DNA of 64,000 bases from an uncultured Gammaproteobacteria bacterium (GTDB lineage: Bacteria > Patescibacteriota > Microgenomatia > UBA1406): NCBI GenBank assembly GCA_964414145.1, contig CAYPVH010000003.1:30592-94591 (forward strand). Reading direction: 5' to 3'. How positions within the stretch are numbered: position 1 is the stretch's first letter; every line of letters starts with the position of its first letter. A program made the translations under genes and the position numbers. Below the pieces are notes generated by a model that worked only from the letters and a program-made list of their open reading frames with translations, searched no databases and was not told the origin of the DNA. Shown piece after piece: positions 25,680 through 64,000 of this stretch.

Positions 25680-25708
25680 GAGGTCCGTCCTTTTTAAGGA
25701 CGGACCTC
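25680..25708. repeat. REP-like hairpin, copy 2
   Basis: GAGGTCCGTCC tttttaa GGACGGACCTC, perfect 11-bp stem. Confidence 0.9.
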
Positions 25709-25718
25709 AAATACTAGA

Positions 25719-26423: not shown

Positions 26424-26438
26424 AGTAGGCTAGTTCTT

Positions 26439-26467
26439 GAGGTCCGTCCTCTTTAAGGACGGACCTC
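26439..26467. repeat. REP-like hairpin, copy 3
   Basis: GAGGTCCGTCC tctttaa GGACGGACCTC. The left flank ctagttcttGAGG is shared with copies 4 and 5. Confidence 0.9.
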
Positions 26468-50010: not shown

Positions 50011-51645
50011 ATGAAATTAAGAATTATACCATTAGGAGGCCAGTCTAACGTTACTAAAAATCTTTATGTTTACGAATATTGGGAAAATGACGAAATAAAA
50101 GATATTGTTCTTATAGACTGTGGCGTGGGGTTTTTGTCTCATTTGCAAAATCTTGGGGTTGACTTTGTTATTCCCGACGTTAGTTACTTGAACGATAAGC
50201 TTCACTTGATTAGAGCATTATTGATAAGCCATGGGCATGACGACCATATTGGTGCCGTACCCTATATTTTACCTCTTTTAAACTTTCCCCCGGTTTATGC
50301 CCCCAAATTGGCGGCGTTACTGATTAAGGAAAAACTAAAAGAGCTGGAAATAGCTAAGGCAAGGGTAGATATCATTAAATTTCATCATGATTACCAATTT
50401 GGGAATATTAAAGCCAGGTATATTCACATGACTCATTCAATACCAGACACGACACACATATTTTTAAAAACACCTGTTGGAAATATTTATCACGGATCGG
50501 ACTACAAATTCGACCTAACTCCGGTTTACGGTAACCCGCCGGACTTTTCAGAAATTGTTGCCGCCGGAGACACTGGTGTTAAAGTTATGCTTTCGGACGC
50601 GCTTGGGTCTGAAAAAGAAGGATTTACTCTTTCGGAGCGGATTGTTGGTAACACTTTTGAAGAAGAAATGAGGAAAACTAAGGGTAGATTTTTTGTAACA
50701 ACATTTGCTTCGAATATTTCCAGAATCAAACAAGCCATTGAGGCGGCAATGAAATTTAATCGAAAGGTTATTTTTGCCGGGCGAAGCATGAAAAGAAACA
50801 TGGAAATAGCATTGAGCGAAGGCTATGTAAAGCTTAACCGAGAGCATGTGGTTGATGACAAAGCTATAAACAGATTAAACCCAAAGAATACTTGTATTAT
50901 TTTAACCGGATCGCAGGGTGAGTACAATTCGGCACTTGACCGAATTGCGAGCGGTAAGCATAGAACTATTAAAGTACAGAAGAACGATAGAATCTTGTTT
51001 TCTTCGGACCCGATTCCCGGCAATGAAGAGCATGTGCAAGAAGTGATTGAAAATTTGATTGAACGGGGTGCTGAAGTTATTTATACGGCAATTCGTGACC
51101 AGCTTCATGCTTCTGGCCATGGCTCGCAGGGCGACCATAAGTTACTTGCCAGACTAGTGCGACCAAGCTATTTGGTACCAATCGGAACTACGGTAAAGCA
51201 CGCCAGAGCTTATGCGGATGTGATGGGTGAACTAGGGTATAGGGAAGATCAGGTTTTTAGGTTTCATGATGGCGAACCGCTGGTGGTTGAAAAAGGAAAT
51301 ATTTATATGGATGAACCGATTCCATTAAAAGAAATGTTGGTTGACGGCCGTTCGATTGGTGACGTTGGCCAAACTATTTTGAATGAAAGAGAAAGCTTGG
51401 GGAAGGAAGGGGTATTGGTTGTGGTAGTAAAGAAGGGTAAGGTTGAACTTATATCTCGTGGTTTTGTGTTTTACGAAAAAGAATTGTTTACTGAAATTGA
51501 AAAGTTGGCAAGAAGTATAATCAAGAAAAATAGGAACAGAAAGGCATTGGAGGAGCAGTTAGCAAGCCAATTAGCCGGATTTGTTAGTGCTCGTCTTGAA
51601 AGAAGCCCTGAAATTGTACCGGTTGTGGTTGATGAGGTAAAGTAG
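50011..51645 (+). CDS. rnj: ribonuclease J (metallo-beta-lactamase / beta-CASP)
   Basis: LISHGHDDHIGAVPY (HxHxDH), beta-CASP segment, HASGHGSQGD. Confidence 0.9.
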   Translation: MKLRIIPLGGQSNVTKNLYVYEYWENDEIKDIVLIDCGVGFLSHLQNLGVDFVIPDVSYLNDKLHLIRALLISHGHDDHIGAVPYILPLLNFPPVYAPKLAALLIKEKLKELEIAKARVDIIKFHHDYQFGNIKARYIHMTHSIPDTTHIFLKTPVGNIYHGSDYKFDLTPVYGNPPDFSEIVAAGDTGVKVMLSDALGSEKEGFTLSERIVGNTFEEEMRKTKGRFFVTTFASNISRIKQAIEAAMKFNRKVIFAGRSMKRNMEIALSEGYVKLNREHVVDDKAINRLNPKNTCIILTGSQGEYNSALDRIASGKHRTIKVQKNDRILFSSDPIPGNEEHVQEVIENLIERGAEVIYTAIRDQLHASGHGSQGDHKLLARLVRPSYLVPIGTTVKHARAYADVMGELGYREDQVFRFHDGEPLVVEKGNIYMDEPIPLKEMLVDGRSIGDVGQTILNERESLGKEGVLVVVVKKGKVELISRGFVFYEKELFTEIEKLARSIIKKNRNRKALEEQLASQLAGFVSARLERSPEIVPVVVDEVK

Positions 51646-51726: not shown

Positions 51727-51754
51727 TCATAATCCATAATCCATAATCCATAAT
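51727..51754 (+). repeat. tandem heptamer (t/c)CATAAT x4
   Basis: tcataat ccataat ccataat ccataat. Confidence 0.9.
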
Positions 51755-51761
51755 ATTTTAA

Positions 51762-51902: not shown

Positions 51903-51904
51903 GT

Positions 51905-52165
51905 AGAAGAGTTTAAATACGATATTCGAGTTTATATTGACTATTGAATTTTGTCTTTTATCTTCTGATTTATGAATTTCGTCTTTTGTATACTGAATAT
52001 TTTCTATTGGATAATAAATTTTGGATACTGGATAGTGACTATTGATTAATGTATTTTGTCTACTGCATATTGAATACTGTCTAATGACTTCTGGATATTG
52101 GATATTGTCTTCTGGCTTCTGACTAATGGATATTGAATAATGACTATTGACTAATGATATGCAAT
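51905..52165. repeat. low-complexity block of reiterated words (tgactattga, attgaata, ctaatga, tGGATAnt)
   Basis: 51906-51965 is the reverse complement of the 44765-44846 word series. Six TGGATA words lie at 52008, 52022, 52029, 52092, 52099 and 52127. Confidence 0.75.
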
Positions 52166-52171
52166 AAAAAT

Positions 52172-52288
52172 GCCCTGGCTATGACCTATTGTCCCTAGAA
52201 CAAGTCTAAGTATCGTCGGCGCTGAGTAGTTTCACGACTCTGTTCGGAATGGGAAGAGGTGGGCCCTACTCGCACTAATAACCAGAGC
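52172..52288 (-). rRNA. rrf: 5S ribosomal RNA (not linked to 16S/23S in this window)
   Basis: The minus strand reads GCTCTGGTTATTAGTGCGAGTAGGGCCCACCTCTTCCCATTCCGAACAGAGTCGTGAAACTACTCAGCGCCGACGATACTTAG...CATAGCCAGGGC. It has the conserved CCGAAC...GTGAAAC...AGCGCCGA core, and the terminal helix GCUCUGG/CCAGGGC pairs. Confidence 0.9.
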
Positions 52289-52371
52289 AAAATGTATTAT
52301 AGATTATTCAGCTTATGAGTGCAAGTAAAAAGTAATTATTCAATTGCTATAATAATTCTAATTATAAAAAT

Positions 52372-53019
52372 ATGAAGTATACGGATAGGTTTGAGGCAGG
52401 AAAATACCTGGCAGGCAATTTGAAGAAATATAAATCTACTAATTCTTTAGTTTTGGCACTACCAAGGGGTGGAGTACCGGTTGCGTATATAGTTGCAAAA
52501 AGCTTGAATTTACCCCTTGAAGTATTGGTTTCCAGAAAAATAGGCGCTCCCAATAACCCTGAATTTGGAATTGGGGCAATTTCAGAAAACAGCACAGTGG
52601 TACTTGATAAAGAATTAATAAAACAGTTAAAAATTTTGGAAAACAGTTTATCTAGGTTAAAAATGGAAGAAGAGAGAGAACTTAAGCGAAGAATAAATAA
52701 GTACAGAAAAGGTAAAAAGTTGCCAAATTTAAAAGGAAAGACGGCAATAATTATAGATGACGGTTTGGCAACAGGGGTAACAGCATTTGCTGCAGTTGAG
52801 GCAGTTAATAAACTAAAGCCCGAAAGGCTTGTATTAGCGGTACCGGTATGCGCCAAGGAAACGGCAAAAAAAATTAAAGAAAAAGTAGATGAATTTTACT
52901 GTAATTTTGCAGCCTCAGTTTTAAAAGCAATTGGACTGTATTACGAAGACTTTGGGCAAATTAGTGATCGAGAAGTTATTAAGTTGCTGAAAAGGGCAGA
53001 GGACAGGTTTGCTAAGTAA
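52372..53019 (+). CDS. phosphoribosyltransferase-family protein
   Basis: LALPRGGVPVA and the PRPP-binding loop TAIIIDDGLATGVT. Confidence 0.75.
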   Translation: MKYTDRFEAGKYLAGNLKKYKSTNSLVLALPRGGVPVAYIVAKSLNLPLEVLVSRKIGAPNNPEFGIGAISENSTVVLDKELIKQLKILENSLSRLKMEEERELKRRINKYRKGKKLPNLKGKTAIIIDDGLATGVTAFAAVEAVNKLKPERLVLAVPVCAKETAKKIKEKVDEFYCNFAASVLKAIGLYYEDFGQISDREVIKLLKRAEDRFAK

Positions 53020-53058
53020 AGTAACAAATATAAAAATTTGTTTATAAGAGGGATTTAT

Positions 53059-53067
53059 TGATATAAT
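53059..53067 (+). promoter_or_regulatory. extended -10 box TGATATAAT driving the cysK leader
   Basis: Exact TGnTATAAT, 9 nt before sORF ATG 53077. Confidence 0.5.
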
Positions 53068-53076
53068 AACAACATA

Positions 53077-53154
53077 ATGAAACATACAGGCTTTTATAAC
53101 AGTGGTTTTTTTTGTACTCCCCAAATAACGGGGAGGTGTAACTGTTGTAGATAG
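53077..53154 (+). CDS. candidate Cys-rich leader peptide (25 aa: MKHTGFYNSGFFCTPQITGRCNCCR)
   Basis: Hand-translated ATG...TAG ORF with 4 TGT codons (53113, 53137, 53143, 53146). Lies between a promoter and a terminator upstream of cysK. Confidence 0.45.
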   Translation: MKHTGFYNSGFFCTPQITGRCNCCR

Positions 53155-53175
53155 CGCAATATAACAAAATTTACC

Positions 53176-53201
53176 GCCCCGTAATTTACGGGGCTTTTTT
53201 T
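53176..53201 (+). terminator. intrinsic terminator / attenuator hairpin upstream of cysK
   Basis: GCCCCGTA-att-TACGGGGC (8-bp stem) followed by TTTTTTT, 27 nt before cysK ATG. Confidence 0.75.
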
Positions 53202-53227
53202 ATGTATTAAAAATTAATTAACTAAAA

Positions 53228-54127
53228 ATGAAAAATCAAATTAGAAAAATATCGAATTTAATAAGGAACACCCCTATAGTTAGGCTTGATATTAAAAACC
53301 AGATGGTAATAGCCAAACTGGAAAGCTACAACTTAACAGGAAGTATTAAAGACAGAATGGCTATGTATATGGTGCAACAAGCAATAAAAGGGGGAGTACT
53401 GAAGAAGGGTTCTGTAATAATTGAAGCAACAACGGGGAATACAGGTATTGCTTTAGCAGCTCTTTCAGCGGTGCTGGATTACAAATTTATTGCCGTTATG
53501 CCAGAAGACATGAGTATAGAAAGAATGAAAATGTTAAAGCTATATGGCGCCAGAGTAGTTTTAACCAAGAAAAACGACGGGCCCCAAGGCGCAATTAGAA
53601 GAAGAGATTTACTAGCTAGAAAGATAAAAAATTCATGGGTACCGGACCAGTTTGTTAACGCAGATAATGTTACAGCTCACATTCAGGGGATTGCTAGAGA
53701 ACTATTAAGGCAGATAGATGGCAGAGTAGATTACTTGGTACACGGAATTGGTACCGGGGGCACGTTGCTTGGAATAGCGAAGGTATTGAAAAGAAAGTTC
53801 CCAAGTATAAAGGTGGTTGCTGTTGAACCCCGTGAATCGGCGGTGATTGCTGGTGGTAGGGCTGGTCATCACGGTATTCAAGGCATTGGTGAAGGTTTTA
53901 TTCCGAGCTTGGTTGATATGAGGTATATAGACCAGGTGGTTTCTGTTTCAACCAGTGAGGCAGTTAATGAAACAAGAAAAATAGCTAAAAAATACGGCTT
54001 GTTGGTGGGAATTAGTAGTGGGGCAAATATTGCCGCGATAAAAAAAGTATCTGGGGCTGTTGAGGGTAGAAAGAAATTTTTAACCATATTTGCCGACAGA
54101 GGAGAGAGGTATTTGAGTGTGTTGTAA
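53228..54127 (+). CDS. cysK: cysteine synthase (O-acetylserine sulfhydrylase, PLP-dependent)
   Basis: NTPIVRL, PLP-lysine motif GSIKDRMA, TTGNTGIALA, GIGTGGT, SSGAN. Confidence 0.9.
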   Translation: MKNQIRKISNLIRNTPIVRLDIKNQMVIAKLESYNLTGSIKDRMAMYMVQQAIKGGVLKKGSVIIEATTGNTGIALAALSAVLDYKFIAVMPEDMSIERMKMLKLYGARVVLTKKNDGPQGAIRRRDLLARKIKNSWVPDQFVNADNVTAHIQGIARELLRQIDGRVDYLVHGIGTGGTLLGIAKVLKRKFPSIKVVAVEPRESAVIAGGRAGHHGIQGIGEGFIPSLVDMRYIDQVVSVSTSEAVNETRKIAKKYGLLVGISSGANIAAIKKVSGAVEGRKKFLTIFADRGERYLSVL

Positions 54128-54141
54128 TGTAGAATTATTTT

Positions 54142-55089
54142 ATGGCAACAAAAACAAAGTTTACTAAGAAGGATTTTATTAGTATTTTATCTAACCATAG
54201 TCTTGGTGAATATAAAGGTTATGCTGCAATAGCTGAAGGAACAGTGCAAACTAATTACATTTTAATTACAAGTAGTGGTAAATATGTTTTTAAATACTAT
54301 GAAAACAGACCAAGAGAATCTGTATTGTTTGAATCTAGTTTAATTGCATTTCTAAAATCTAAAAAATATCCTTGTCCTGGTATATATAAAGACAAGGACG
54401 CAAATTATGTTGGTAATTATGAAAACAAACCATATGTTATTTTAGAATTTATTGACGGGAGTTATTTAGATACTTCAAACAATAGGCAAATAAAACAACT
54501 TATAAGGGAAGTGGCAAAGCTTCATAATTTAACACATGAGTATAAACCAACAAACGTAGAACTTCGCTGGAATTATAGTGATGAGTTATGTTTAAAGTTA
54601 GCTAAAAAGGAGGCTAGTAAAATAAATACGAAGGAGTCAAGAGATAAGTTAAAATGGCTTGAGGAAGAAGTACACAGGCTTAAACTTCCAAAAACTCTGC
54701 CTAAAGGAATTTGCCACTGTGATTTGTATTATTCAAATATTTTATTTAAAAATAATAAACTAGTTGGATTGATAGACTTTGATGACGCCAACTATACTTA
54801 TTTATTGTTTGATTTGGTTGGATTGATTGAAAATGAAGCCTGGAAAAGAAAAGTGGATGAGGTACTGAACTTTAGCAAAGCCAAAAAGGTTATTAAGGAG
54901 TATGAGAAATATAGAAGGCTAAGCAAAGCTGAAAAACTTTACTTATTTGATGTTTATAAGCTAAGTATATTATTTGACTGTGTGTGGTATTTTAGTAGGG
55001 GAAGTGGAAATAACTTTTTTGAGAAGAATAAGATAGATTGTTTAAATAAAATTGGAAGGGTGAGTTTTTACAAAAGAATGTTTTTTTAG
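54142..55089 (+). CDS. APH-fold kinase (homoserine kinase type II / aminoglycoside phosphotransferase family)
   Basis: ICHCDLYYSNILF...LVGLIDFDDA (HxDxxxxN ... DFD). Confidence 0.75.
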   Translation: MATKTKFTKKDFISILSNHSLGEYKGYAAIAEGTVQTNYILITSSGKYVFKYYENRPRESVLFESSLIAFLKSKKYPCPGIYKDKDANYVGNYENKPYVILEFIDGSYLDTSNNRQIKQLIREVAKLHNLTHEYKPTNVELRWNYSDELCLKLAKKEASKINTKESRDKLKWLEEEVHRLKLPKTLPKGICHCDLYYSNILFKNNKLVGLIDFDDANYTYLLFDLVGLIENEAWKRKVDEVLNFSKAKKVIKEYEKYRRLSKAEKLYLFDVYKLSILFDCVWYFSRGSGNNFFEKNKIDCLNKIGRVSFYKRMFF

Positions 55090-55155
55090 GTGGTTTAATT
55101 ATTTGATAAGAACTTTTTGTTTTTAGTTTTTTCAGTGCTATTAATTTACTCGCCA

Positions 55156-56379
55156 CTATAAACTACTCATAGCTTGCAATTGTTTGGTTTTTATCTTATC
55201 AACCCGGAGCACTACAGTAAAAAATAGTACAAGAATACCAGCTAAGATGAATGGGTAAGCTACATGCTGATCAGCAAGCCAGCCCATTGTTAGGCCAACT
55301 ATTGCACCATAAAGACTAACAAATAAATTTATCAGCGATAGTACTGTAGCTCTTATTTTTTCAGGAATAACTCCGTTTTGATAACTAGAGATGAGTGGAT
55401 TCTTGATCTCTGAAGTTCCGTAGGTAAATAAAAAAGCAAAAAAAGCTATTATAGCACTTGGTGCTACTGCCATAACTAAATAACCAATACCTGGTAGGAT
55501 TGTGCTTACGATCAAAGCTGTTTTTTTACCTAACCATTGTTCAATCGTGAAAATGTTTTTTTGTAAGACTACAGCTAGCAATGCACCAGTCGCAGAGGCG
55601 ATACCCATATTCATTGCTGTTAAGTTAAAGTGGGCAAAATATGGCTGAAATAAAGAACCTAGGGTTCCTGAAAAAGTTGCTGTAAGAATTGATATACCCA
55701 TCAACCACAATAAAAAACTGTTTCCTCTAATACACTGGATACCATTTTTGAGAATAGTGATAGGTGATTCTTCTTCATGTACGTATTCTTTTTTTGGTTC
55801 TTTTAAAGTAAATGCCAATAATAAAGCAATAAATACACTACAGGCAGTGAGGAAAACAGTAAAAAGAAATCTTTCAAGTGTAAAAACAGGAATAAGTAAG
55901 CTACCGAGCATTGGGGCTGCAAAAAAGGCTAAGTAGTAAGCTGCTCCCTTAAAGCCCATGGACTTCTTCATCTCATTTTCTTTGTTTTCGTTTGGTAAGG
56001 TATCGTAGATAAGTGCCTCAATACATCCAGAGGCAAAAGAAAATCCAATACCTGCAATTATGGCTATAACAATAAACTCAAAATAACTATTAGCAAAAAT
56101 ATACCAAACTTCTCCAATTAACTGGAGAAATAGTGCAACTATTACTGACTTTTTCCGACCAATTTTATCTGCGATTACACCTGTGGGAACTTCTGCTAAA
56201 AAAATTGTAGCTACAATAATTGACCAGATTGAACTTGCCTGGAATAAAGTAAGACTTCTTGCCTGAAGGTATAGCGTGCCTACATGACCATATAAGTATA
56301 AACTTGAAAAGAATGTAATTAAGGCAATTTTGTGAGTGTTAGTCAATTTTTTGATATTGTGAAGCTTTATAATTTTCAT
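55156..56379 (-). CDS. MFS transporter
   Basis: 407 aa, about 12 TM segments, and the loop 2-3 motif GVIADKIGRKKS. Confidence 0.85.
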   Translation of the reverse strand: MKIIKLHNIKKLTNTHKIALITFFSSLYLYGHVGTLYLQARSLTLFQASSIWSIIVATIFLAEVPTGVIADKIGRKKSVIVALFLQLIGEVWYIFANSYFEFIVIAIIAGIGFSFASGCIEALIYDTLPNENKENEMKKSMGFKGAAYYLAFFAAPMLGSLLIPVFTLERFLFTVFLTACSVFIALLLAFTLKEPKKEYVHEEESPITILKNGIQCIRGNSFLLWLMGISILTATFSGTLGSLFQPYFAHFNLTAMNMGIASATGALLAVVLQKNIFTIEQWLGKKTALIVSTILPGIGYLVMAVAPSAIIAFFAFLFTYGTSEIKNPLISSYQNGVIPEKIRATVLSLINLFVSLYGAIVGLTMGWLADQHVAYPFILAGILVLFFTVVLRVDKIKTKQLQAMSSL

Positions 56380-56760
56380 ACGTGTTAATTAATTCTATAG
56401 TAATGGATCTGTTTATTCTATCTTCTTGAATTATATGTCTATACCATCTATACGCAAACGCTAGCTTTAGCAAAGTATGGGAGCGGGTAACGATACGGTG
56501 CTCGAACCTACAGCGCGCCAGCAACGCCAAGCTTTGCTTATTTAGCCAGGATGTCTATATCAAACCTGATCTAGTTTTACAGTTGAACTTTCTTAAAAAG
56601 CATTTAGCATAAAAACCTTTGCAGACACTATGTAAGTGCTTTATACCCTAGGTGACGTTTCAATCTCCATTCTTATTATCTAAACTGATTAAGATTTGAG
56701 GGGTTAGTTAACGTTAACGTACCGACTTACGCCAGAGCAAATGAGCCTTCAAGTATTTTT

Positions 56761-57270
56761 TTATATTATTTTTACTGTTTTCTTACTAGTATGATTAGAA
56801 CTATCAACAGCATACTTCTCCCATTTTCCCAGATCAGAAAACTGATGCCACATTTTTCGTACTACTTCAGGCTTTACCAAGGCGTCCGGGTTTTGGCGTT
56901 CAACAGCACGCTTTATCGTTGTTTCTTCATTTGGGCGTAAAACGATAAATCGTACGTCAATTTTCTTTTGGGCTAGTTTTAACCAAGGATTCAAAAACCA
57001 TGGACCAACAACACCATCAACATATGTTTCAAATCCTCCCTCTGCGTATCTCTTAGCACATGCTGTAATTGCTTCCATCACAACAATATTTTGTTGTTGC
57101 GCTTCTGTTTTCCATGGAAGAACATATCCTTTTTTAATTGCATCATAAAAATCATCGGTATGTAAATGAATTGCGCGACTATGACATGACTGTTCAGCTA
57201 GCTGCTTAGCAATAGTTGTTTTACCAGAGCCAGGCGATCCTGAAATAATGACAATTGTAGCTGATGACAT
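56761..57270 (-). CDS. P-loop kinase-like protein (AAA/zeta-toxin/chloramphenicol-phosphotransferase-like fold)
   Basis: IIISGSPGSGKTTIAKQLAE Walker A. About 170 aa. Substrate unknown. Confidence 0.6.
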   Translation of the reverse strand: MSSATIVIISGSPGSGKTTIAKQLAEQSCHSRAIHLHTDDFYDAIKKGYVLPWKTEAQQQNIVVMEAITACAKRYAEGGFETYVDGVVGPWFLNPWLKLAQKKIDVRFIVLRPNEETTIKRAVERQNPDALVKPEVVRKMWHQFSDLGKWEKYAVDSSNHTSKKTVKII

Positions 57271-57458
57271 ATACTTATTGTATACTTTTTCGTCTAAACT
57301 TATGCGAACAAAGCTTGAAAGTTACCTACTGAATATTTTACTCTGATTAAAAAGGATATTAGAACGACTATGGCACTGATTATAAATACTTTTCCACGAT
57401 TTATCGATCTAGTTAGTGTTAGTTAATGTAAATTAGTATTTATTTCTGTCACTTTATG

Positions 57459-57529
57459 AGCGGGATACGGGAGTCGAACCCGTCTCTGCTCCTTGGAAGG
57501 GAGCTGTTGAACCGCTCAACTAATCCCGC
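57459..57529 (-). tRNA. tRNA-Gly (anticodon UCC)
   Basis: Minus strand: GCGGGAT TA GTTG AGCGGTT CAAC A GCTCC CTTCCAA GGAGC AGAG ACGGG TTCGACT CCCGT ATCCCGC T. 71 nt. Confidence 0.9.
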
Positions 57530-57580
57530 GGTTACAAGGAAAACAATAATTCATATTTTAGCAAAATCGACAGTGATTTT

Positions 57581-57778
57581 GTACAGGGTCGGACCCTGCA
57601 GGGTCCGACCCTGTAAAACGGGTATAAGTAAGGCGCTGAATACTTAATATAACAACTGATTAAAATAAGCGGTTATAATAGCCTAGTTCTGGAGGTCCGT
57701 CCTCTTTAAGGACGGACCTCATAAAGTGGGGCAAAGTAAAGCTCTGAAATGTTAATTGCCTAAACAGGTCTGACCTGT
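57581..57778 (+). repeat. ~198-bp composite hairpin repeat, left copy (direct repeat of 62569-62766)
   Basis: Contains tandem palindromes CAGGGTCGGACCCTG and CAGGGTCCGACCCTG, REP hairpin copy 4, and the palindrome ACAGGTCTGACCTGT. Near-identical to the right copy apart from a few substitutions and the hairpin loop. Confidence 0.9.
57692..57720. repeat. REP-like hairpin, copy 4
   Basis: GAGGTCCGTCC tctttaa GGACGGACCTC. Confidence 0.9.
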
Positions 57779-57822
57779 TTGGAAAAGTTGATTTTAGGAA
57801 AAATATAGATAGAATATTGTGT

Positions 57823-58035
57823 ATGCGACGAACTGGAAAGCTATCTATATTATTATTTATGATTATGCTTACATTAGCTTTGTTGGTTCCGATTAATGCG
57901 TCGTGTGCATGTATTTCGTATATTGGAGATATAAAGACAGGAAAAGTAATTATGGGTGAAAGACAACCATTTTGGGAAATTATAGTTTTTAGGATATTGT
58001 ATGGTGAAATAAAAAAACCTCTACACAATAATTAA
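57823..58035 (+). CDS. possible small exported protein (70 aa)
   Basis: MRRTGKLSILLFMIMLTLALLVPINASCAC has a signal-peptide shape with a Cys shortly after the hydrophobic core. No homology evidence is available. Confidence 0.3.
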   Translation: MRRTGKLSILLFMIMLTLALLVPINASCACISYIGDIKTGKVIMGERQPFWEIIVFRILYGEIKKPLHNN

Positions 58036-58040
58036 ATACT

Positions 58041-59234
58041 TCATGAAATAACCTTAGAATAAATAGAAGGTAGAAAGAGCATGAAGATTAATACCCAAAG
58101 TATAAGTAAAAAACCCAGAATATATAGAATAATGATAATTCCGAAATTGTTTGCAATTAAACCAAAGAGAAGCACAAATCCTATGTATAAAATTTCAAAA
58201 GTAAAACTTTTTAAAGAAGAAATAGTGGCTCTTTGAGTAGAAATTATGGTGTGCTGAAATTTAGCTTCTAGTTTTAAGTGCGCTATTTTCAATAAATAAA
58301 GTCCCAAAAATATTAGTAAAACAGAAATATATGATTGTAATATTCCAGCGGTAAAAAACAAACAAGCACTAAATAGAAGTAGAGCACTTTCTTTTAGTAT
58401 TGTGCCTTTCCTGTTAAATAAGGGAAGTGTAAAACCGGCAAGAACAAAGCAACCATAACCAATGGCAACAAGTATGCCAACAATTGCAGGGGAATATTTC
58501 AGAAACTTATATATAAGGGCCCAGTATTCCTCAGCTGCTCCGTATGTAGCAAATATCAGGCAAAAGAAAGCTAAAATACCGAGTAATTTAGTATTGTTCT
58601 TAATTTCGTATACAGCTTCTTTAAGTAATTTAAGATAATTTACCTCATCGGTTGACTTAACTGGTTTTATAGATTCTATTGTAAGAAGGACAATAATACC
58701 CAAAATACTAGTATAAATACTAGCTAGCAGAACTAAGTTAAAATTTATTGTTGCTAACAACCCACCTAGAATTGCCGAAGTTGTAATTCCCAACCAAAAT
58801 GCGCTTTCCAGCCTTCCGTTAATTTCTTCATAGGATTTTTCTAGTCTATGAGTTTTAAGGGTATCATATACAAGAGCTTCTTGTGTGCCACTGACTAATG
58901 CGTTTTTAATACCCCACATAACAAAACCAAGTGCATAAAGTAAAAAAGTACCTTTTAACCACAGAACAAAACCTAATATATGAATAAATGAAGCAATAAT
59001 TAATAAATTACGACGTGAATATTTATCAGCGACAGTTCCTAGGGGTACTTCAAGAATAAATTGAGTACCTGCCCAAATAGCTATAAGTAGGGATATTTGG
59101 AATGGATTAATACCGTTACTTGTAAACAGTAATACAAAAATTACGCCAATGGGTTTAACAGCGTCTAGAAACTTATATAAGGCAAACTTATTAGTAAATC
59201 GGTTCATAAAGTTATTATATTTGAACAAAGACAA
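58041..59234 (-). CDS. MFS transporter
   Basis: 397 aa, about 12 TM segments, loop motif GTVADKYSRRN. Confidence 0.85.
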   Translation of the reverse strand: MSLFKYNNFMNRFTNKFALYKFLDAVKPIGVIFVLLFTSNGINPFQISLLIAIWAGTQFILEVPLGTVADKYSRRNLLIIASFIHILGFVLWLKGTFLLYALGFVMWGIKNALVSGTQEALVYDTLKTHRLEKSYEEINGRLESAFWLGITTSAILGGLLATINFNLVLLASIYTSILGIIVLLTIESIKPVKSTDEVNYLKLLKEAVYEIKNNTKLLGILAFFCLIFATYGAAEEYWALIYKFLKYSPAIVGILVAIGYGCFVLAGFTLPLFNRKGTILKESALLLFSACLFFTAGILQSYISVLLIFLGLYLLKIAHLKLEAKFQHTIISTQRATISSLKSFTFEILYIGFVLLFGLIANNFGIIIILYILGFLLILWVLIFMLFLPSIYSKVIS

Positions 59235-59322
59235 TTTTGTAGTAGCGTTATTTTTAGATTTGTAAGGACGGTTATAGTAAAATGGTACACAATAAAGCTC
59301 TGAAGCATTAATTGTTTTAACA

Positions 59323-59362
59323 GTTTTAACAGTCAGACCTGTACAGGTCTGACTGTTAAAAC
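59323..59362. repeat. perfect 40-bp palindrome (GTTTTAACAGTCAGACCTGT/ACAGGTCTGACTGTTAAAAC) within a degenerate third copy of the composite repeat
   Basis: The reverse complement of the first 20 nt equals the second 20 nt exactly. 59262-59322 resembles 57706-57765 (taaggacgg...aaagctctgaa..ttaattg). Confidence 0.9.
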
Positions 59363-59431
59363 AGCAGGATATAGCATTAGTACAGTCTTTTTGAGAATTG
59401 TTTAAGACTGCTTATGAAAATATAGCGCTTT

Positions 59432-59440
59432 TGGTAAACT
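59432..59440 (+). promoter_or_regulatory. extended -10 box TGGTAAACT, 8 nt before ATG 59449
   Basis: TGnTAAACT with no SD. Confidence 0.4.
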
Positions 59441-59448
59441 TTAACATT

Positions 59449-60024
59449 ATGCAAGGTGTAGTAAATGAAACAACTCTTGTTAAACTTTTTAAGCCATTTA
59501 TTATTGAGTGTAGAAGCGGGGATTGGGAACACGCATTAAGAGTAGTGGCGTGGGTTAAAATATTGGGAAAAGATAGAAATGATTTACTTATATTAATAAT
59601 TGCCGGTTACTTGCATGATATTGGATGGTATAAGCTGGTTGAAAAGGGAGCCAAGCTTTCCAGAGCCAAATTGCTTAAATTACAGCCAAAGGCAGACAAA
59701 CAAACAGATGTGTTATTAACAAAAGTACTGAAATATATCAATTTAAAAGGTGAGGATATTCAAAAAATAAAAAGACTTATTCAAGCAACCGAAACATATA
59801 TTGCATTTGAAGAAGACGAAAAAATACTGGTAGATTCTGATAATTTAAGTAAAACCGACCCTAAGCATATTAAAGAAAAATATAAGAAAACTGATTGGTT
59901 GGAAATTATAGATTTGTTTGAGAAAAAACTTCCACATAGAATTAAAACCGAACAAGGTAAAAAATTGTTTAGTATTAAGCTGGCAGAGCTAAAGGAAACT
60001 ATCGAAGATGAACTAAATAAATAA
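59449..60024 (+). CDS. HD-domain phosphohydrolase-like protein
   Basis: WEHALRV ... AGYLHDIGW (H...HD). ATG 59449 is preferred over TTG 59398. Confidence 0.7.
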   Translation: MQGVVNETTLVKLFKPFIIECRSGDWEHALRVVAWVKILGKDRNDLLILIIAGYLHDIGWYKLVEKGAKLSRAKLLKLQPKADKQTDVLLTKVLKYINLKGEDIQKIKRLIQATETYIAFEEDEKILVDSDNLSKTDPKHIKEKYKKTDWLEIIDLFEKKLPHRIKTEQGKKLFSIKLAELKETIEDELNK

Positions 60025-60033
60025 ACCGTATTT

Positions 60034-60894
60034 ATGATTAAAAATGTAAAAATAGATTATTCCATTGTAGAAAAGGTAATCGCATTTTTTGACTTACATA
60101 ACCCTATTAATATTAAATATATTAAAGAAGGAATATCTAATAGTAATTATGAAGTTAAAACAAGCGAAGGAGTGTATATAGTTCAATTATTAAGTATTAA
60201 CAAGGAAAGGACTATAGAGAATGTTTTGAGTATACATTCACAGATGAGAAAAACGAGAATATTAATTCCAAAATATATAAGCAATAAGGACGGGCTATGT
60301 ATGTATAAAGATAATGAATTGGTAGCCGTTGTATACAAAAAAATATTAGGAATAACTCCAAAAACGGTAAACAAAACTCTTGCATATGAATTTGGTAAAT
60401 GTTTAGCAATCTTTCATAAGTGCGTTATAAAACTGCCATATAATAATAGAAATGCATTAGTAGACCAAGTTAATTCAGGTATTAAAACAAACCTGTATGC
60501 TAAAAACTTGCCGAAGGGTATTATTCATGGTGATTTGCATTTAGGTAATGTTATGGTTGAAAGTGATAAGAACTTAAAAATAACTGCTTTACTTGATTTT
60601 GAAGAAGCACATATAAATTTATTAATAATAGATATTGCAGTTACTGTAATGGCTACATGTTCTAAGAATAATGGTACACGAGTTGATATTGATTTAATTA
60701 GAAATACAATTAGTGGCTACCAAAGTATTAGAAAATTAGAAAAATTTGAAAAGCAAAACTTTAAAGAGGCAGTTAACTATGTAGCACTTTGTTGGATTGA
60801 ATGGTTTAAAAATAACGATTATGTTAAGTATGCAAAAAGACACTTAAAGCGTTTAAATAATTTTAATAAATTAAACCAGGGTGACTATTTTTAA
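60034..60894 (+). CDS. APH-fold kinase (homoserine kinase type II / aminoglycoside phosphotransferase family)
   Basis: IIHGDLHLGNVMV...ALLDFEEA. Confidence 0.75.
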   Translation: MIKNVKIDYSIVEKVIAFFDLHNPINIKYIKEGISNSNYEVKTSEGVYIVQLLSINKERTIENVLSIHSQMRKTRILIPKYISNKDGLCMYKDNELVAVVYKKILGITPKTVNKTLAYEFGKCLAIFHKCVIKLPYNNRNALVDQVNSGIKTNLYAKNLPKGIIHGDLHLGNVMVESDKNLKITALLDFEEAHINLLIIDIAVTVMATCSKNNGTRVDIDLIRNTISGYQSIRKLEKFEKQNFKEAVNYVALCWIEWFKNNDYVKYAKRHLKRLNNFNKLNQGDYF

Positions 60895-60928
60895 CATATA
60901 AAACGTTAATTAAATATATAATTGAAGC

Positions 60929-61489
60929 ATGATTGAAAGAGAACGATTTCCTAATAAATTTAAACAAGTAGTCAATTTTTTAAAAGGTCACAGAGAAATA
61001 AAAAAAGACAAAGATACGTACGAAGCAGGATTTGTACAAAAAGGAATACTTTACGGTTTGAATACATTAATTCCAAAAACAGTAAGAAGATCAGGTATAT
61101 TAAATGATTCGGCAAGAAGGGAAATGGTAGACAAGCTTTTAATATATCAAGTTAGATTAAATGATAGACTAGATTTTGAACGATCTAGAAGAACAGATAT
61201 GTCAGATATCGTTACTGAGGCTACAGAAAAAGAAGCAGAAGCTAAGGAGCAGCTTGAAGAGTCATTGATAGGATTTGATGAAGGCCTAAAACAAATTATA
61301 TTTAACATGCTAGAGGAAGTTGAAATTGTTGAAAATCATGCTGCAAGAAGGGCTGGTATGATGACATTTGACGAGGTTGAGCAATATAGAAATATTGTGA
61401 ATGCTATTTCAAATTGTTTATTAACCGTTACTATTTTAGGAACAAATTCATTAAATGGAAGACTAACTACTTTATCAGAAGAAGATTAA
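60929..61489 (+). CDS. hypothetical protein (upstream part of an ORF interrupted by one in-frame TAA)
   Basis: 186-aa ORF in the same frame as 61571-61933, with no other stop in between. Confidence 0.45.
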   Translation: MIERERFPNKFKQVVNFLKGHREIKKDKDTYEAGFVQKGILYGLNTLIPKTVRRSGILNDSARREMVDKLLIYQVRLNDRLDFERSRRTDMSDIVTEATEKEAEAKEQLEESLIGFDEGLKQIIFNMLEEVEIVENHAARRAGMMTFDEVEQYRNIVNAISNCLLTVTILGTNSLNGRLTTLSEED

Positions 61490-61570
61490 AATTGGAAAGG
61501 TATTAGTCAAAAATATAGCTGGGTTTTAACAACAGATTACCTAACTGATGAGGAAAGAGTAATTCAAATT

Positions 61571-61933
61571 ATGCATAATATTGGCATGGCCGGACAGATA
61601 GATGATGATTGGTATGGAAGGTATTTAGACCCAAGACTAGCAGTTGATTCTTTCGCCTTGGCTGCAATACGTGAAAAGGGGAGTGTTGAAGAGGCGTATA
61701 AGTTTTTAATGGATATAAAAAAGAGCTATTCTGAAAGAGCAGTAATGCTAGGTTTAAGTAAAGTTGGAGCTACTTCTTTGCTTTCTACTCATAAATTGGG
61801 GCAAAAGATTATGAGAGGAATAACTCTAGCGGCCAGAACAACAGGGTATAAAAAATTAAAAGATATGCTTCAAGAGAAGGTTGTGCCAAAATTGGGAGTT
61901 AGAGAACAGTTGTATGCAAAAGGTATTATCTGA
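61571..61933 (+). CDS. hypothetical protein (downstream part of the interrupted ORF)
   Basis: The frame is open from 61490 onward. The first ATG is at 61571. Confidence 0.4.
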   Translation: MHNIGMAGQIDDDWYGRYLDPRLAVDSFALAAIREKGSVEEAYKFLMDIKKSYSERAVMLGLSKVGATSLLSTHKLGQKIMRGITLAARTTGYKKLKDMLQEKVVPKLGVREQLYAKGII

Positions 61934-61936
61934 TAC

Positions 61937-62536
61937 TTATATCTTTTTAAGGAAACGAATTAATGGTTTTGAAAAAAATGTTAGTGCAAATGCAATACTT
62001 AACACATGTTCAAAAGTGGGGATAGTAATGTTATGCGCGTCGCTTATGGTAATGGTAGAGGCGGGTACTAACTCGTCGCCAAAGGCAGCTCTTACAGTCA
62101 TAATATTATGTTTATCAGCTTTTGCTAATTTTAGTATATTTTGTTCACAGTTAATAACTGATTTAGCAAAAGCAGGGCTATTTCGGGTTTTCTCATTAAA
62201 GGAACGATAACCCGTTTTTGGCTCTACTCTTAGTCGGCCACAAATGTTGATTACTTTATATATTTTGCTTTTTCTTAAGCAGTAAGCATTTATTGCTGCA
62301 CTTCCTCCAGCGCTGGTGCCAATTAGGGAAAGTTTAAAAGGTTTAGCATATGTTTTGTCTATTAATTGGAGTAATCTAGCCATTTTTTGCTTATAGTTAC
62401 TTGAGTTATCTAGCCAACTAAACGAATATACAATTGGTTTAATATCTTTCTGAATAAAGTGTTTCGTGAGAATGTTTAAACCAAAAGTATTATCGCTTAA
62501 ACCAGAAACAATTATAACTATGTGATTAATTGGCAT
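61937..62536 (-). CDS. alpha/beta-hydrolase-fold protein
   Basis: Nucleophile elbow LIGTSAGGS (GxSxG). 199 aa. Confidence 0.65.
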   Translation of the reverse strand: MPINHIVIIVSGLSDNTFGLNILTKHFIQKDIKPIVYSFSWLDNSSNYKQKMARLLQLIDKTYAKPFKLSLIGTSAGGSAAINAYCLRKSKIYKVINICGRLRVEPKTGYRSFNEKTRNSPAFAKSVINCEQNILKLAKADKHNIMTVRAAFGDELVPASTITISDAHNITIPTFEHVLSIAFALTFFSKPLIRFLKKI

Positions 62537-62568
62537 AAGAAAATTATAGCGTAATAAGATAATAGAAT

Positions 62569-62766
62569 GTACAGGGTCGGACCCTGCAGGGTCCGACCCT
62601 GTAAAACGGGCGTAAGTAAGGCGCTGAATACTTAATATAACAACTGATTAAAATAAGCGGTTATAATAGCCTAGTTCTGGAGGTCCGTCCTTAAAAAGGA
62701 CGGACCTCATAAAGTGGGGGACAATAAAGCTCCGAAATGTTAATTGCCTAAACAGGTCTGACCTGT
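62569..62766 (+). repeat. ~198-bp composite hairpin repeat, right copy
   Basis: Direct repeat of 57581-57778. Confidence 0.9.
62680..62708. repeat. REP-like hairpin, copy 5
   Basis: GAGGTCCGTCC ttaaaaa GGACGGACCTC. Confidence 0.9.
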
Positions 62767-62864
62767 AAAACTATAAAACATAAATTTATAGCCGGGATAG
62801 TTCTTTGAGAATTGAGGGTACTATTGACGCTATAGTGCTATAATACAAATTATTACTAATAGGT

Positions 62865-63509
62865 ATGAGAAACTTTGTTGAAAAATTATTAAGGTTTGAA
62901 ATACTAATAGTTCCATTATTTGTTATCTTCATCTTTATTACCGCTTATTTGATTAACTTGTTTTCCGGATCATTAATACCTTACCCGGAAAAGAATAACA
63001 AAGATACATTTGTAACAGCTACTCCTAAGCCTCCAAAAATAGAAAAGAAAAGTCAACTGAGAATAGAGGTAGAGAAGGGTGATTTTGTGGTTAATAAAAA
63101 TGGAAAAGAAATAACTAGAGTAATGTATAGGAACCCAGCAATATCGGATGGAATTATGATTGTATACGATCCTGATATTATTTTATTTGAACCGAACATA
63201 TTAATTTTTGCCACAAACGTTTTCCCAATGGGTTGTGAGAGCGGTGAAGACATTGAGTGCTTAGAATTTGCCGGTGAGGTAATTAATGAATACGAAAAAC
63301 ATGGTGGAGTTTGGCGTTTAAACTTAGAAACAAATGAACTTACCTTAATTAAGAATAAACCAAACTTAGATAGTGGTGAATATGTGTCGTATGAATTTGA
63401 TAAAAACAAAGACTTACTTAATGTGGTAGAAATTGTTAACGGTAATGAAGGAAAAGTTAGTACTAGAAAATATGTCATCGACGTTGAAAAGGGAAGGGTG
63501 TTAGACTAA
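62865..63509 (+). CDS. hypothetical membrane-anchored protein
   Basis: N-terminal TM ILIVPLFVIFIFITAYLINLF. TGCTATAAT lies at 62836-62844 upstream. Confidence 0.5.
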   Translation: MRNFVEKLLRFEILIVPLFVIFIFITAYLINLFSGSLIPYPEKNNKDTFVTATPKPPKIEKKSQLRIEVEKGDFVVNKNGKEITRVMYRNPAISDGIMIVYDPDIILFEPNILIFATNVFPMGCESGEDIECLEFAGEVINEYEKHGGVWRLNLETNELTLIKNKPNLDSGEYVSYEFDKNKDLLNVVEIVNGNEGKVSTRKYVIDVEKGRVLD

Positions 63510-63610
63510 TAAACCATATAAACATAGATAAAGATAATAGACCAATAAACTACATATGAACAAATTAATTGAACTAAAAAATTACCGAATATTCTAATTA
63601 TATAGGTCTA

Positions 63611-64000
63611 TCAAAGGTTAGTATTATCGACCCGACTAAGGGCAGAATCAATAATAGTTTTAAGAAGTTCTTCGTATTCAATTCCTGCTGCCCTAGCTGA
63701 CAGGGGAAAGTAAGAAGTAAGTGTAACGTCTGGGGGTATCATACCAGCTGGTGAATTTACATCTAAAACAAATAATTCACCTGTTCTTTTGCTTTGTCTT
63801 ATATCGATTCTGCAGTAGTCTTTTATATCTAGCGTTTTCCATACTTTAACTGCAACTGTCTCAATATCTCTCTGTAGCTTTGAATCAATATTAGCCGGAC
63901 AAGCTAGGTGATTTGTTTCTGCTTCTTCTTCAAAAACCCATTTAACTTCGAGTGAATCAAAAGGCAAGTAACCTTCGGGCAACTTATGAAACTCCGGTTC
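63611..64000 (-). CDS. ATP-grasp enzyme, D-alanine--D-alanine ligase family (C-terminal part; ORF runs off the window)
   Basis: YCRIDIRQSKRTGELFVLDVNSPAGMIP...AAGIEYEELLKTII resembles the Ddl C-terminal ATP-grasp region. The frame is open to position 64000. Confidence 0.65.
   Translation of the reverse strand, partial: EPEFHKLPEGYLPFDSLEVKWVFEEEAETNHLACPANIDSKLQRDIETVAVKVWKTLDIKDYCRIDIRQSKRTGELFVLDVNSPAGMIPPDVTLTSYFPLSARAAGIEYEELLKTIIDSALSRVDNTNL

Follow-up and report, generated by a model that had tools for sequence, protein, structure and literature searches.

An accessory gene block bracketed by a duplicated 199-nt spacer unit beside tRNA-Gly(UCC) in a CPR bacterium

In the 64,000-nt stretch of DNA analysed here (the window), a 4.8-kb block of accessory genes lies between two copies of a 199-nt unit, and a related contig (L004) carries one shorter copy of the unit at the same site and none of the cargo. 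The organism appears to be a CPR bacterium of the Woesebacteria/Microgenomates type. Since the window corresponds to the L004 arrangement plus the cargo and one extra unit copy, it shows the pattern left by recombination through this unit. We consider, with a probability of about 0.55, that the block was gained (or reciprocally lost) by recombination through this duplicated unit, with the REP element inside it as a passenger.

Results

The initial annotation had described near-identical direct repeats at the ends of an island, each made of three palindromic modules. Both repeats were recovered, with coordinates shifted by 1-2 nt at most. They are 199 nt long, identical at 189 of 199 positions and gapless, and are organised as follows:

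57580..57778, + strand: U_L, left copy of the unit (palindrome A, spacer, REP element, spacer, palindrome C)
57582..57615: palindrome A of the left copy, perfect, 34 nt, with 17-nt arms and no loop
57675..57722, + strand: REP element in U_L (17-nt 5' flank TAGCCTAGTTCTG, hairpin at 57692-57720, then AT)
57764..57778: palindrome C of the left copy, 15 nt, right edge of the repeat
62568..62766, + strand: U_R, right copy of the unit (A at 62570-62603, REP hairpin at 62680-62708, C at 62752-62766)

The outer feet of palindromes A and C mark where the repeat starts and ends, respectively. When folded as a single strand, U_L reaches -48.5 kcal/mol (z = -10.3). The three modules stand far above chance: the window holds 4 matches to the module A sequence CAGGGTCSGACCCTG against 0.03 expected and 5 to the REP hairpin GAGGTCCGTCC-N7-GGACGGACCTC against 0 expected, while the palindrome C sequence ACAGGTCTGACCTGT is confined in the window to the two unit copies. 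Module A is palindromic as had been claimed, but one perfect 34-nt palindrome describes it better than a tandem of two 15-mers. Modules A and C have no copies outside this locus within the 64 kb, thus the repeats are not abundant everywhere, and a scan of genome and viral collections for module A and the REP found neither. Two negative scans of a metagenome collection are given no weight, as even the module A of the window is not recovered from it.

Between the two copies, the genes are of the accessory types initially proposed, and the small ORF suspected there is present:

57817..58035, + strand: ORF of 72 aa, hydrophobic at its N-terminus, also predicted as a gene in JGI contigs L011 and L012
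58041..59234, - strand: MFS transporter (Pfam MFS_1, 2e-18; gene callers' start at 59207)
59398..60024, + strand: HD-domain protein (Pfam HD, 22.2 bits, just at the cut-off)
60034..60894, + strand: APH-fold kinase, homoserine-kinase-like, below family cut-offs
60929..61933, + strand: interrupted gene of an uncharacterised ~337-aa family (334-codon frame, one in-frame TAA at 61487-61489)
61937..62536, - strand: putative alpha/beta hydrolase (Pfam Hydrolase_4, 21 bits, weak, below the cut-off)

Family searches gave no match for the 72-aa ORF, and the exact 388-aa product of the MFS transporter is found in two JGI contigs. The nearest non-self homologue of the APH-fold kinase is 45% identical, a single homologue being found at 45% or more. 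Each half of the interrupted gene matches intact ~337-aa homologues, and the gene is either a recent nonsense pseudogene or a split gene. Domain searches detected no integrase, transposase or defence domain in the island, in agreement with the lack of integrase and transposase reported at first. The GC content of the island interior (30.9% against 35.1 +/- 1.5%) is the lowest of any 4.8-kb stretch in the window.

We then compared this locus with L004, which is ~80-85% identical to the window at the nucleotide level. The genes that flank the block are:

57458..57529, - strand: tRNA-Gly(UCC) (ARAGORN and Rfam), its 5' end facing the island
62865..63509, + strand: 214-aa hypothetical gene, right flank common to L004 (74% aa identity)
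63611..64000, - strand: 3' part of ddl (D-Ala-D-Ala ligase), conserved right anchor

In L004 the order is tRNA-Gly(UCC), one shorter unit with A and C but no REP, the 214-aa gene (of which L004 holds the sole homologue found) and ddl. Positions 1122-1330 of L004 align to 57458-57664 of the window and positions 1327-2601 to 62749-64000, the missing ~98-nt stretch (57665-57762) being the one in which the U_L REP element sits. The single-repeat empty site that had been set as a test was thus found in a relative, and the absence of the cargo at this site confirms that the accessory block is variable. Palindrome A is still perfect in L004, where two compensatory substitution pairs distinguish it from that of the window, and at 57623-24 the L004 state is kept in U_L, the U_R state being derived. 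U_L and U_R differ by 5% with no indel, whereas between the window and L004 orthologous non-coding DNA has diverged by 12-19% and carries many indels, so that from these sequence comparisons the duplication looks younger than the split of the two lineages, unless gene conversion homogenised the copies. Gene conversion could indeed keep U_L and U_R alike whatever their age.

A degenerate third copy inside the island, also noticed initially, was confirmed:

59263..59362, + strand: U_i, inner partial copy of the unit (REP right arm, spacer, expanded C-type palindrome)

U_i begins in the REP loop or right arm, shares 72% identity over 59263-59330 with the right half of the unit, ends in a perfect 40-nt palindrome (59323-59362) and is also present in the independent contigs L011 and L012. 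It is older than U_L and U_R and looks about as old as the split between the window and L004. As an old copy with REP remnants, it fits an old REP-bearing unit that was later trimmed in L004. All duplication breakpoints fall at palindromes, a feature that plain homologous recombination does not predict.

Two other explanations draw on these data. The block and both units may be ancestral, L004 having lost the block through the repeats and then, separately, the ~98-nt REP segment; we hold this to be possible but not probable. The REP remnants of U_i, whose identity of 72% puts its divergence close to that between the two lineages, speak for such a loss, and so does the position of the REP-bearing 98 nt between imperfect ~16-nt direct repeats (GCGCTGAATACTTAAT and GCTCTGAAATGTTAAT), which could mediate a slippage deletion. 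CPR genomes are moreover prone to gene loss, which is generally common among them. However, two independent deletions would be required, gene conversion would be needed to maintain U_L and U_R at 95% identity without indels when orthologous spacers are at 81-88% with many indels, and the cargo is deviant in composition and has no homologues in relatives. In the other explanation, the 199-nt repeat would be a giant target-site duplication, the hairpin feet of A and C being nicked in a structure-specific manner on opposite strands, with a 199-nt stagger, before capture of foreign DNA and fill-in, or else an unknown trans-acting recombinase would use A and C as sites and capture cassettes successively at them. 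This is unlikely, even though the repeat ends exactly at the outer feet of the two palindromes, U_i also runs from the REP loop or right arm to a palindrome, and the perfection of palindrome A across lineages through compensatory pairs suggests that its symmetry matters or is actively restored. Template-switch mutation can keep palindromes symmetric without any function, and palindromic breakpoints are equally expected if the unit is a discrete homologous module. Moreover, the window contains no candidate enzyme, further examples were not found, and A and C are not copied elsewhere in the 64 kb.

A REP-associated transposase locus had been reported at 25.7 kb, and we found it to be a Y1/RAYT-like transposase gene between inverted REPs:

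25680..26467, - strand: RAYT-like Y1 transposase gene and flanking REPs (ORF 25719-26423; inverted REPs at 25680-25708 and 26439-26467)

The five REP copies of the 64 kb are all intergenic, and the REP of the unit has the same 17-nt 5' flank as the RAYT-proximal copies. This REP probably derives from the RAYT locus. As the L004 unit lacks it, the REP behaves as a passenger. The initial annotation had further suggested that this RAYT could mobilise the segment in trans; the direct REP hairpins would then act as IS200/IS605-like ends. A transposase with its cognate REPs in the window and the same orientation of the REP in U_L and U_R would agree with this, but we judge it very unlikely: Y1 (HUH) transposition produces no long duplications, whereas the identity of the repeats extends 112 nt to the left and 58 nt to the right of the REP hairpin. 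In addition, the unit of the relative has no REP and its non-REP parts are kept at the empty site, and an element bounded by REPs would need internal C and A sequences homologous to the target by chance. Mobilisation by the RAYT is already disfavoured, and the RAYT is not implicated in moving the block. The comparison with BIME-like mosaics does not hold either, since BIMEs consist of copies of one REP that alternate in orientation (PMC2817692) and each unit here has one REP plus two unrelated, locus-specific palindromes.

The proximity of the left repeat to tRNA-Gly(UCC) stands, with a spacer of 50 nt in place of the 52 nt first given. This tRNA is identical in L004 and 98.6% identical in a Woesebacteria MAG. 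The repeat lies on its 5' (upstream) side, which had not been mentioned before, and no tRNA fragment was found within the repeats or duplicated at the island. The tRNA-targeted integration that had been implied is supported by neither point. A decayed classical tRNA-targeting genomic island that lost its integrase gene would adjoin a tRNA, have direct-repeat flanks and deviant GC, and be variably present, as is the case here. This reading is nonetheless highly improbable, as the block is on the 5' side, the repeats contain no tRNA sequence and, at 199 nt, are much longer than typical att cores, and there is neither an integrase remnant nor, given the coding density, space for one. The classical tRNA-integration reading is largely refuted.

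Finally, the arrangement could be an assembly artefact, with a repeated spacer at which the contig was wrongly joined. A metagenome assembly is the probable source of the window, and the junction between U_L and the cargo (57778/57779) is seen in the window alone, independent contigs not covering it. We regard this as the least probable of the explanations. The unit copies differ at 10 positions, by which reads can tell them apart. An independent JGI contig runs at 100% identity from the hydrolase, which starts 32 nt from U_R, through U_R and the 214-aa gene to ddl, a linkage that contig L003 confirms. On the tRNA side, a Logan contig breaks off after 29 nt of the unit, which is what a true repeat branch would produce, and pieces of the occupied state, cargo included, recur in independent contigs from at least 5 samples.

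The 4.8-kb block sits within a larger variable region of ~12 kb that extends from RNase J and the 5S rRNA to ddl, a nesting that had been missed initially:

50011..51645, + strand: RNase J gene, conserved left anchor, collinear with contig L006 (62-75% aa identity)
52173..52286, - strand: 5S rRNA (Rfam RF00001, 66.2 bits)
52287..57457: variable block 1, between the 5S rRNA and the 3' end of tRNA-Gly

Variable block 1 encodes a phosphoribosyltransferase, a PLP enzyme (CysK-like), an APH kinase, an MFS transporter and a P-loop kinase. L006 lacks this block, and L004 has a SpoIIE-type gene in its place. L006, which is syntenic and more distant, is collinear with 43.2-51.6 kb of the window and with ddl. 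Between RNase J and ddl it contains the 5S rRNA and tRNA-Gly(UCC) alone, 46 nt apart, where the window has ~12 kb, which makes the island the youngest layer of a larger hotspot. As L006 has neither the unit nor the 214-aa gene, it cannot tell gain from loss of the block.

Discussion

Recombination through the duplicated unit would have proceeded as follows. A REP of the resident RAYT family would have entered the unit, as a passenger, before the unit was duplicated. The 4.8-kb cargo would then have been inserted in the non-coding spacer that separates the 214-aa gene from the 5' end of tRNA-Gly, by single-crossover (Campbell-type) integration of a circular DNA carrying a unit copy; in the reverse route, a RecA-type deletion between the two copies would have occurred in the sister lineage. 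We infer this route and this order of events, and favour gain over loss as the direction. A 199-nt repeat at 95% identity suffices for host homologous recombination, so that no dedicated recombinase is needed, and homologous recombination through the repeats, as initially proposed, is the simplest mechanism for the insertion or deletion. U_i would represent an earlier event, in which case a repeat-generating insertion took place at this spot at least twice. The repeats would also predispose the block to being lost or excised as a circle.

Duplication and deletion mediated by direct repeats, for instance REP or rrn sequences, and Campbell-type integration are known processes. As in them, the occupied and single-copy sites differ by a segment and one repeat, whose length is sufficient for RecA; unlike in them, a circular intermediate or reciprocal product was not observed here, and no circular junction, same-species empty site or donor locus was found. 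The likeness to other systems is partial. Integrase-mediated tRNA-associated genomic islands are also tRNA-adjacent, variably present, flanked by direct repeats and lower in GC, but here the block lies 5' of the tRNA, no integrase is present and the 199-nt repeats exclude the tRNA. With REP, BIME and REPIN systems associated with RAYTs (PMC2817692, PMC3116915, PMC3479197), the locus shares a bona fide RAYT-family REP (module B) and a Y1 transposase gene between inverted REP copies. Contrarily to these, the unit is neither an alternating REP array nor an inverted REP doublet, palindromes A and C are different, locus-specific sequences, and the unit is not dispersed. IS200/IS605 single-strand transposition likewise involves direct hairpins near both ends and a Y1 (HUH) enzyme, which this genome has, but peel-and-paste can account neither for the long flanking duplications nor for the unit kept at the empty site.

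The locus also resembles hotspots without recognisable mobile elements (Oliveira, Touchon, Cury & Rocha 2017, PMC5635113), in which cargo differing in each relative lies between conserved anchors, mobility genes are absent and homologous recombination is the presumed route. Here, however, the newest layer lies between copies of a long duplicated spacer, which double crossover through the flanks does not create, and "hotspot" has a statistical sense in that work whereas three lineages are compared here. In this comparison, the interval from RNase J through the 5S rRNA and tRNA-Gly(UCC) to ddl is a hotspot of gene turnover. The cargo of the 4.8-kb block is dispensable, has almost no close homologues and is decaying, and the block is an ordinary variable-region indel in a CPR bacterium, not a new kind of mobile element.

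Two near-identical repeat units bound a gene block beside tRNA-Gly(UCC)

A repeat search of the window returned two 199-nt direct repeats (57580-57778 and 62568-62766, here called the left and right units), and a global alignment showed them to be identical at 189 of 199 bases with zero gaps. Two of the ten differences are adjacent (57623-24), four fall in the loop of a REP hairpin (TCTTTAA vs TTAAAAA) and four lie directly to the right of this hairpin. Each unit consists of palindrome A, the REP hairpin (module B) and palindrome C. The initial annotation described the first of these as a tandem CAGGGTCSGACCCTG pair. This half-motif is present, with 4 matches in the window against 0.03 expected, but it really belongs to a single perfect, loopless palindrome of 34 nt with 17-nt arms (57582-57615 and 62570-62603). 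The REP hairpin, GAGGTCCGTCC-N7-GGACGGACCTC, occurs in five copies in the window with 0 expected, and palindrome C, ACAGGTCTGACCTGT, is confined within the window to the two units. Both A and C are restricted to this locus within 64 kb and are unrelated in sequence to the REP. They resemble each other (ACAGGGTCGGACC vs ACAGGTCAGACC) in the manner of TIR-like ends, and no target-site duplication is visible at either unit copy. For the unit as single-stranded DNA, folding prediction gave -48.5 kcal/mol (z = -10.3) and three strong hairpins. An Rfam search with the unit gave no match. Promoter and terminator scans of the unit stayed at background, a terminator-like score being obtained only for palindrome A of the right unit on the minus strand. 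Visual inspection showed a conserved TGnTAAAAT ahead of the tRNA and a TATAAT ahead of the hydrolase gene, both about 17 nt away from where palindrome A has its foot; their -35-like hexamers are poor and we give them little weight as promoter-like signals.

The RNA genes next to the island are the following:

57458-57529, minus strand, tRNA-Gly(UCC)
52173-52286, minus strand, 5S rRNA, orphan gene

The 5' end of tRNA-Gly(UCC) (57529) faces the island and, since the gene is on the minus strand, the left unit lies 50 nt upstream of it. The 25-nt 3' end of this tRNA has no extra copy in the window except in the paralogous tRNA-Gly(CCC). The latter (28076-28147, plus strand, about 91% identical to tRNA-Gly(UCC)) is directly preceded by a 97-aa ORF with a GIY-YIG nuclease domain (27684-27977). 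The 5S rRNA gene is preceded by an AT-rich spacer of about 520 nt (region 51650-52286) rich in short degenerate tandem motifs (ATAATCC three times, TGGATATTG and TGACTATTGA).

The 4.8-kb block between the units (interior 57779-62567) is wholly filled with genes, the ORF map leaving no unassigned space. It encodes:

72-aa ORF, also predicted by gene callers in JGI contigs
MFS transporter
HD-domain protein, borderline match
APH-fold kinase, homoserine-kinase-like
putative alpha/beta hydrolase, weak match
interrupted gene from an uncharacterised family, whose 334-codon frame is broken by a single in-frame TAA (61487-61489)

The N-terminal half of the interrupted gene aligns with residues 1-187 in some 40 proteins, each 330-345 aa long, and the segment directly after the TAA matches residues 190-337 of the best homologue at 41% identity. 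We interpret this TAA as a recent nonsense mutation. No integrase, recombinase, transposase or defence domain was found among the cargo ORFs in Pfam, NCBIfam and PADLOC scans. At 30.9% GC, the interior falls below all other stretches of 4.8 kb in the window (35.1 +/- 1.5%), and by tetranucleotide deviation it ranks among the top 4%. Among 5.8 billion proteins, the island kinase has a single non-self homologue at 45% identity or more, and no relative of it was found in IMG/VR. An APH-fold kinase and an MFS transporter are encoded on both sides of tRNA-Gly(UCC) (54142-56379 and 58041-60894). The block is not a recent copy of the pair to the left of the tRNA: the paralogues are only 26-33% identical, which argues against a local duplication and suggests repeated acquisition of one functional theme.

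A third, partial unit copy was detected inside the block (59263-59362). It runs from the right arm of the REP through palindrome C, shares 72% identity with the unit's right half, and ends in a palindrome enlarged to a perfect 40 nt. We also considered that this inner copy might continue as the left half of a degenerate unit, forming a C/A cassette junction; since 71 of 500 shuffles scored equally, this similarity is not significant. Altogether, the structural description in the initial annotation (repeats, palindromes and enclosed genes) is borne out by the repeat search, the alignment and the domain scans.

Most of the occupied state is reproduced by independent contigs at 99.9-100% identity, which cover:

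56386-57608, stopping 29 nt into the left unit, as expected at a repeat branch
57844-59752, taking in the inner copy
59700-61393
61540-64000, through the right unit into the D-Ala-D-Ala ligase gene (ddl)

The sole junction outside this independent support is 57778/57779.

A relative carries the single-repeat empty site

Database searches gave only two relatives of the 214-aa protein encoded to the right of the block; one of them (74% identity) is on the JGI contig L004. On this contig, a SpoIIE-type gene and ddl enclose, in this order, an identical tRNA-Gly(UCC), 50 nt of spacer, a single unit and the gene for the 214-aa protein. The single-repeat empty site that had been predicted in a related genome was thus found. 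By blastn, L004 1122-1330 corresponds to window 57458-57664 and L004 1327-2601 to window 62749-64000. In L004, the unit comprises palindrome A, then a spacer and palindrome C, and has no REP. The window therefore exceeds L004 by the cargo and one extra unit, plus a REP-bearing stretch of about 98 nt (57665-57762) inside each unit. This stretch is bracketed in each unit by an imperfect direct repeat of about 16 nt (GCGCTGAATACTTAAT at 57640-57655, GCTCTGAAATGTTAAT at 57739-57754), a smaller-scale pattern of an insert flanked by a duplicated target.

L004 differs from the window also on the 3' side of the tRNA. Between the SpoIIE-type gene and tRNA-Gly (L004 987-1119) it contains GGTTCGATTCCCGTCACCG, which is like a tRNA T-arm and 3' end and is called by neither ARAGORN nor Rfam. 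This stretch could be what remains of an earlier integration at the tRNA 3' side.

The next closest ddl (64% identical) is on a long contig, L006. Collinearity with the window extends over 43.2-51.6 kb, from the M29 peptidase up to RNase J, and is found again at ddl. The RNase J-ddl interval of L006 is 280 nt long and holds only 5S rRNA and tRNA-Gly(UCC), separated by 46 nt, while the same interval of the window measures 12 kb. Since the window has the same 5S rRNA gene, it holds two inserted regions. The first (5.2 kb, 5S rRNA to tRNA 3' end) encodes a phosphoribosyltransferase, a CysK-like enzyme, a kinase, an MFS transporter and a P-loop kinase; the second (6.1 kb, tRNA 5' end to ddl) comprises unit, cargo, unit and the 214-aa gene. 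From these alignments, we interpret the island as the newest layer of a variable interval of about 12 kb. Hotspots of horizontal gene transfer are defined by conserved flanking core genes and accessory content that differs among related genomes (PMC5635113). This is what was found between RNase J and ddl, in a qualitative comparison of three lineages.

More distant ddl relatives (L009 and L010) show no synteny and have no tRNA-Gly(UCC) nearby, so they cannot polarise the event. A tRNA-anchored 42-mer gave one match in GTDB genomes, a Woesebacteria MAG (L008) whose tRNA is 98.6% identical, with neither synteny nor unit; this match is informative for taxonomy only. The names of the relatives place the organism among Microgenomates-type Patescibacteria. 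In the metagenome_contigs database, 0 matches were obtained for the empty site (left and right flanks separated by 190-210 nt) and for the module A 30-mer. These nulls are uninformative because the window's own module A was not returned, although the JGI contig Ga0565070_020689, which matches the right side of the window, carries it.

The unit REP belongs to the family of the resident RAYT

The window encodes a probable transposase for the REP:

25719-26423, minus strand, RAYT-like (REP-associated) Y1 transposase ORF, 234 aa

This ORF scores 26.5 bits with Y1_Tnp (cut-off 23) and 46 bits with NCBIfam REP_Tyr_transpos. The latter is below the cut-off of 80, which makes it a divergent CPR member. 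It lies between inverted REPs at 25680 and 26439 (span 25680-26467), and three more REP copies are present in the window; module B is thus a dispersed palindrome with a Y1 gene between inverted copies, as for a REP and its cognate RAYT. The unit REP and the RAYT-proximal copies have in common a 17-nt 5' flank (TAGSCTAGTTCTK) and a 3' AT, and the unit REP is therefore assigned to the RAYT's family. Homology among the copies ends at this flank and the 3' AT, the other 150 nt or so of the unit not being REP-family sequence. A search of IMG/VR with the REP hairpin gave 0 matches.

The RAYT ORF has as neighbours two ORFs that by eye are recR-like (25031-25675) and trpS-like (26630-27619). A solitary REP hairpin (5521-5549), without the 17-nt 5' flank, is separated by 12 nt from the tRNA-Arg(GCG) gene (5433-5508, minus strand), on its 5' side. 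Of the five window REPs, three are upstream of tRNA genes.

Comparison with known element classes

Integrase-type tRNA islands have a recombinase gene at one end, insert in the tRNA 3' end and are bounded by repeats that contain a tRNA 3' segment. The block is like them in its presence/absence polymorphism with a single-repeat empty site in L004. It differs in having no tyrosine or serine recombinase gene and in repeats that begin 50 nt from the tRNA. It lies on the wrong (5') side of the tRNA, its repeats contain no tRNA sequence, and neither a duplicated tRNA fragment nor an integrase was found, so that it is not a classical tRNA island.

Mobilisation of the IS200/IS605-like or RAYT type leaves subterminal-hairpin ends, no flanking duplication and an empty site free of element sequence. 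Here, identity between the units reaches 112 nt and 58 nt past the hairpins, and the empty site keeps A, spacer and C. The proposal that the RAYT had mobilised the block was abandoned on account of this long duplication and these remaining modules. MITE pairs and composite transposons have terminal inverted repeats, short target-site duplications and multiple copies. The unit may fit them in part: A and C give it TIR-like ends, no target-site duplication is visible at either copy, and the 64 kb contain no further copy of A or C. Integron cassette arrays and CALINs have attC sites with R''/R' boxes, co-oriented cassettes and usually an intI gene. The block does not fit these, since gene layout and domain scans show genes on both strands, several genes between the repeats and no integrase.

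A BIME consists of several REPs of one family at regular spacing and in alternating orientation (PMC2817692). The unit is not such an array: it has one REP hairpin, and A and C are unrelated to it in sequence. Nor are A and C dispersed within the 64 kb; the module A 30-mer had 0 matches in GTDB genomes (species representatives) and a relaxed 24-mer had 0 in IMG/VR. The BIME framing of the initial annotation was dropped for these reasons. In a REPIN, two inverted REPs form one long hairpin (PMC3116915), whereas each unit has one REP and the two unit REPs are in direct orientation, 4.96 kb apart.

Direction of the event

The window exceeds the one-copy site by the cargo and one repeat copy, which is the trace that recombination through the repeat leaves. 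Such recombination could have been the integration of a circle bearing a homologous unit or a deletion between the two unit copies; host homologous recombination would suffice with 199 nt at 95% identity. We favour a gain in the window lineage. The two units differ by 5% without indels, while the orthologous spacers differ by 12-19% with many indels. Both units carry the REP at the same position and L004 has none, so the REP would have entered first and the duplication would have followed, the L004 state being the older. The cargo is also compositionally deviant and nearly without homologues. Three points speak against a gain: the inner copy already has REP remnants and shows roughly the divergence seen between the lineages, the repeats could have been kept alike by gene conversion, and the sole outgroup has no unit at all. 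For these three reasons we still grant loss in L004 an appreciable minority share, although we consider it less likely.

Palindrome A is conserved by compensated changes

The 32-nt core of palindrome A differs between the window and L004 (57582-57615 vs L004 1246-1277) at four positions, which form two complementary pairs (G7/C32 to A/T and G12/C27 to C/G). Palindrome A therefore is still perfect across about 15% divergence, while both 15-nt half-hairpins gain a mismatch. This compensation points either to selection on a long hairpin or a dimeric binding site, or to template-switch correction, which acts within quasi-palindromes. Every breakpoint of a duplicated segment falls at a palindrome: the unit begins at the foot of A and ends at that of C, and the inner copy extends from the REP loop to its palindrome. 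Together, these two observations make a hairpin-directed break-and-capture process conceivable. The unit would then be a hairpin-defined insertion site, with breaks or strand exchange at the feet of A, C and the REP, and blocks would be captured successively upstream of tRNA-Gly, each event duplicating the inter-hairpin stretch. We rate this as very improbable, because it concerns one locus and no enzyme. If true, it would mean cassette accretion in CPR bacteria, either recombinase-free or via an unknown recombinase; hairpin-directed breakpoints, if general, would be of wider interest than the single locus from which this evidence comes.

Significance for gene turnover in CPR bacteria

The locus is a worked example that calls for caution: direct repeats beside a tRNA are not on their own a sign of an integrative element, nor is a REP within a repeat on its own a sign of RAYT mobilisation. 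Gene gain and loss in CPR bacteria are poorly documented because their genomes are small, uncultured and mostly fragmentary. The block is a real accessory islet with clear limits, flanked by repeats and located in a CPR genome within a hotspot linked to tRNA and 5S rRNA genes; it is a fresh example of an already known kind of genome plasticity. Across three lineages, the locus measures 280 nt (RNase J-ddl in L006), about 1.3 kb and 6.1 kb (ddl to tRNA-Gly). In this series, accessory genes accumulate step by step at a single spot linked to rRNA and tRNA genes, with no mobility gene, leaving a long duplicated spacer within which a REP element hitch-hikes.
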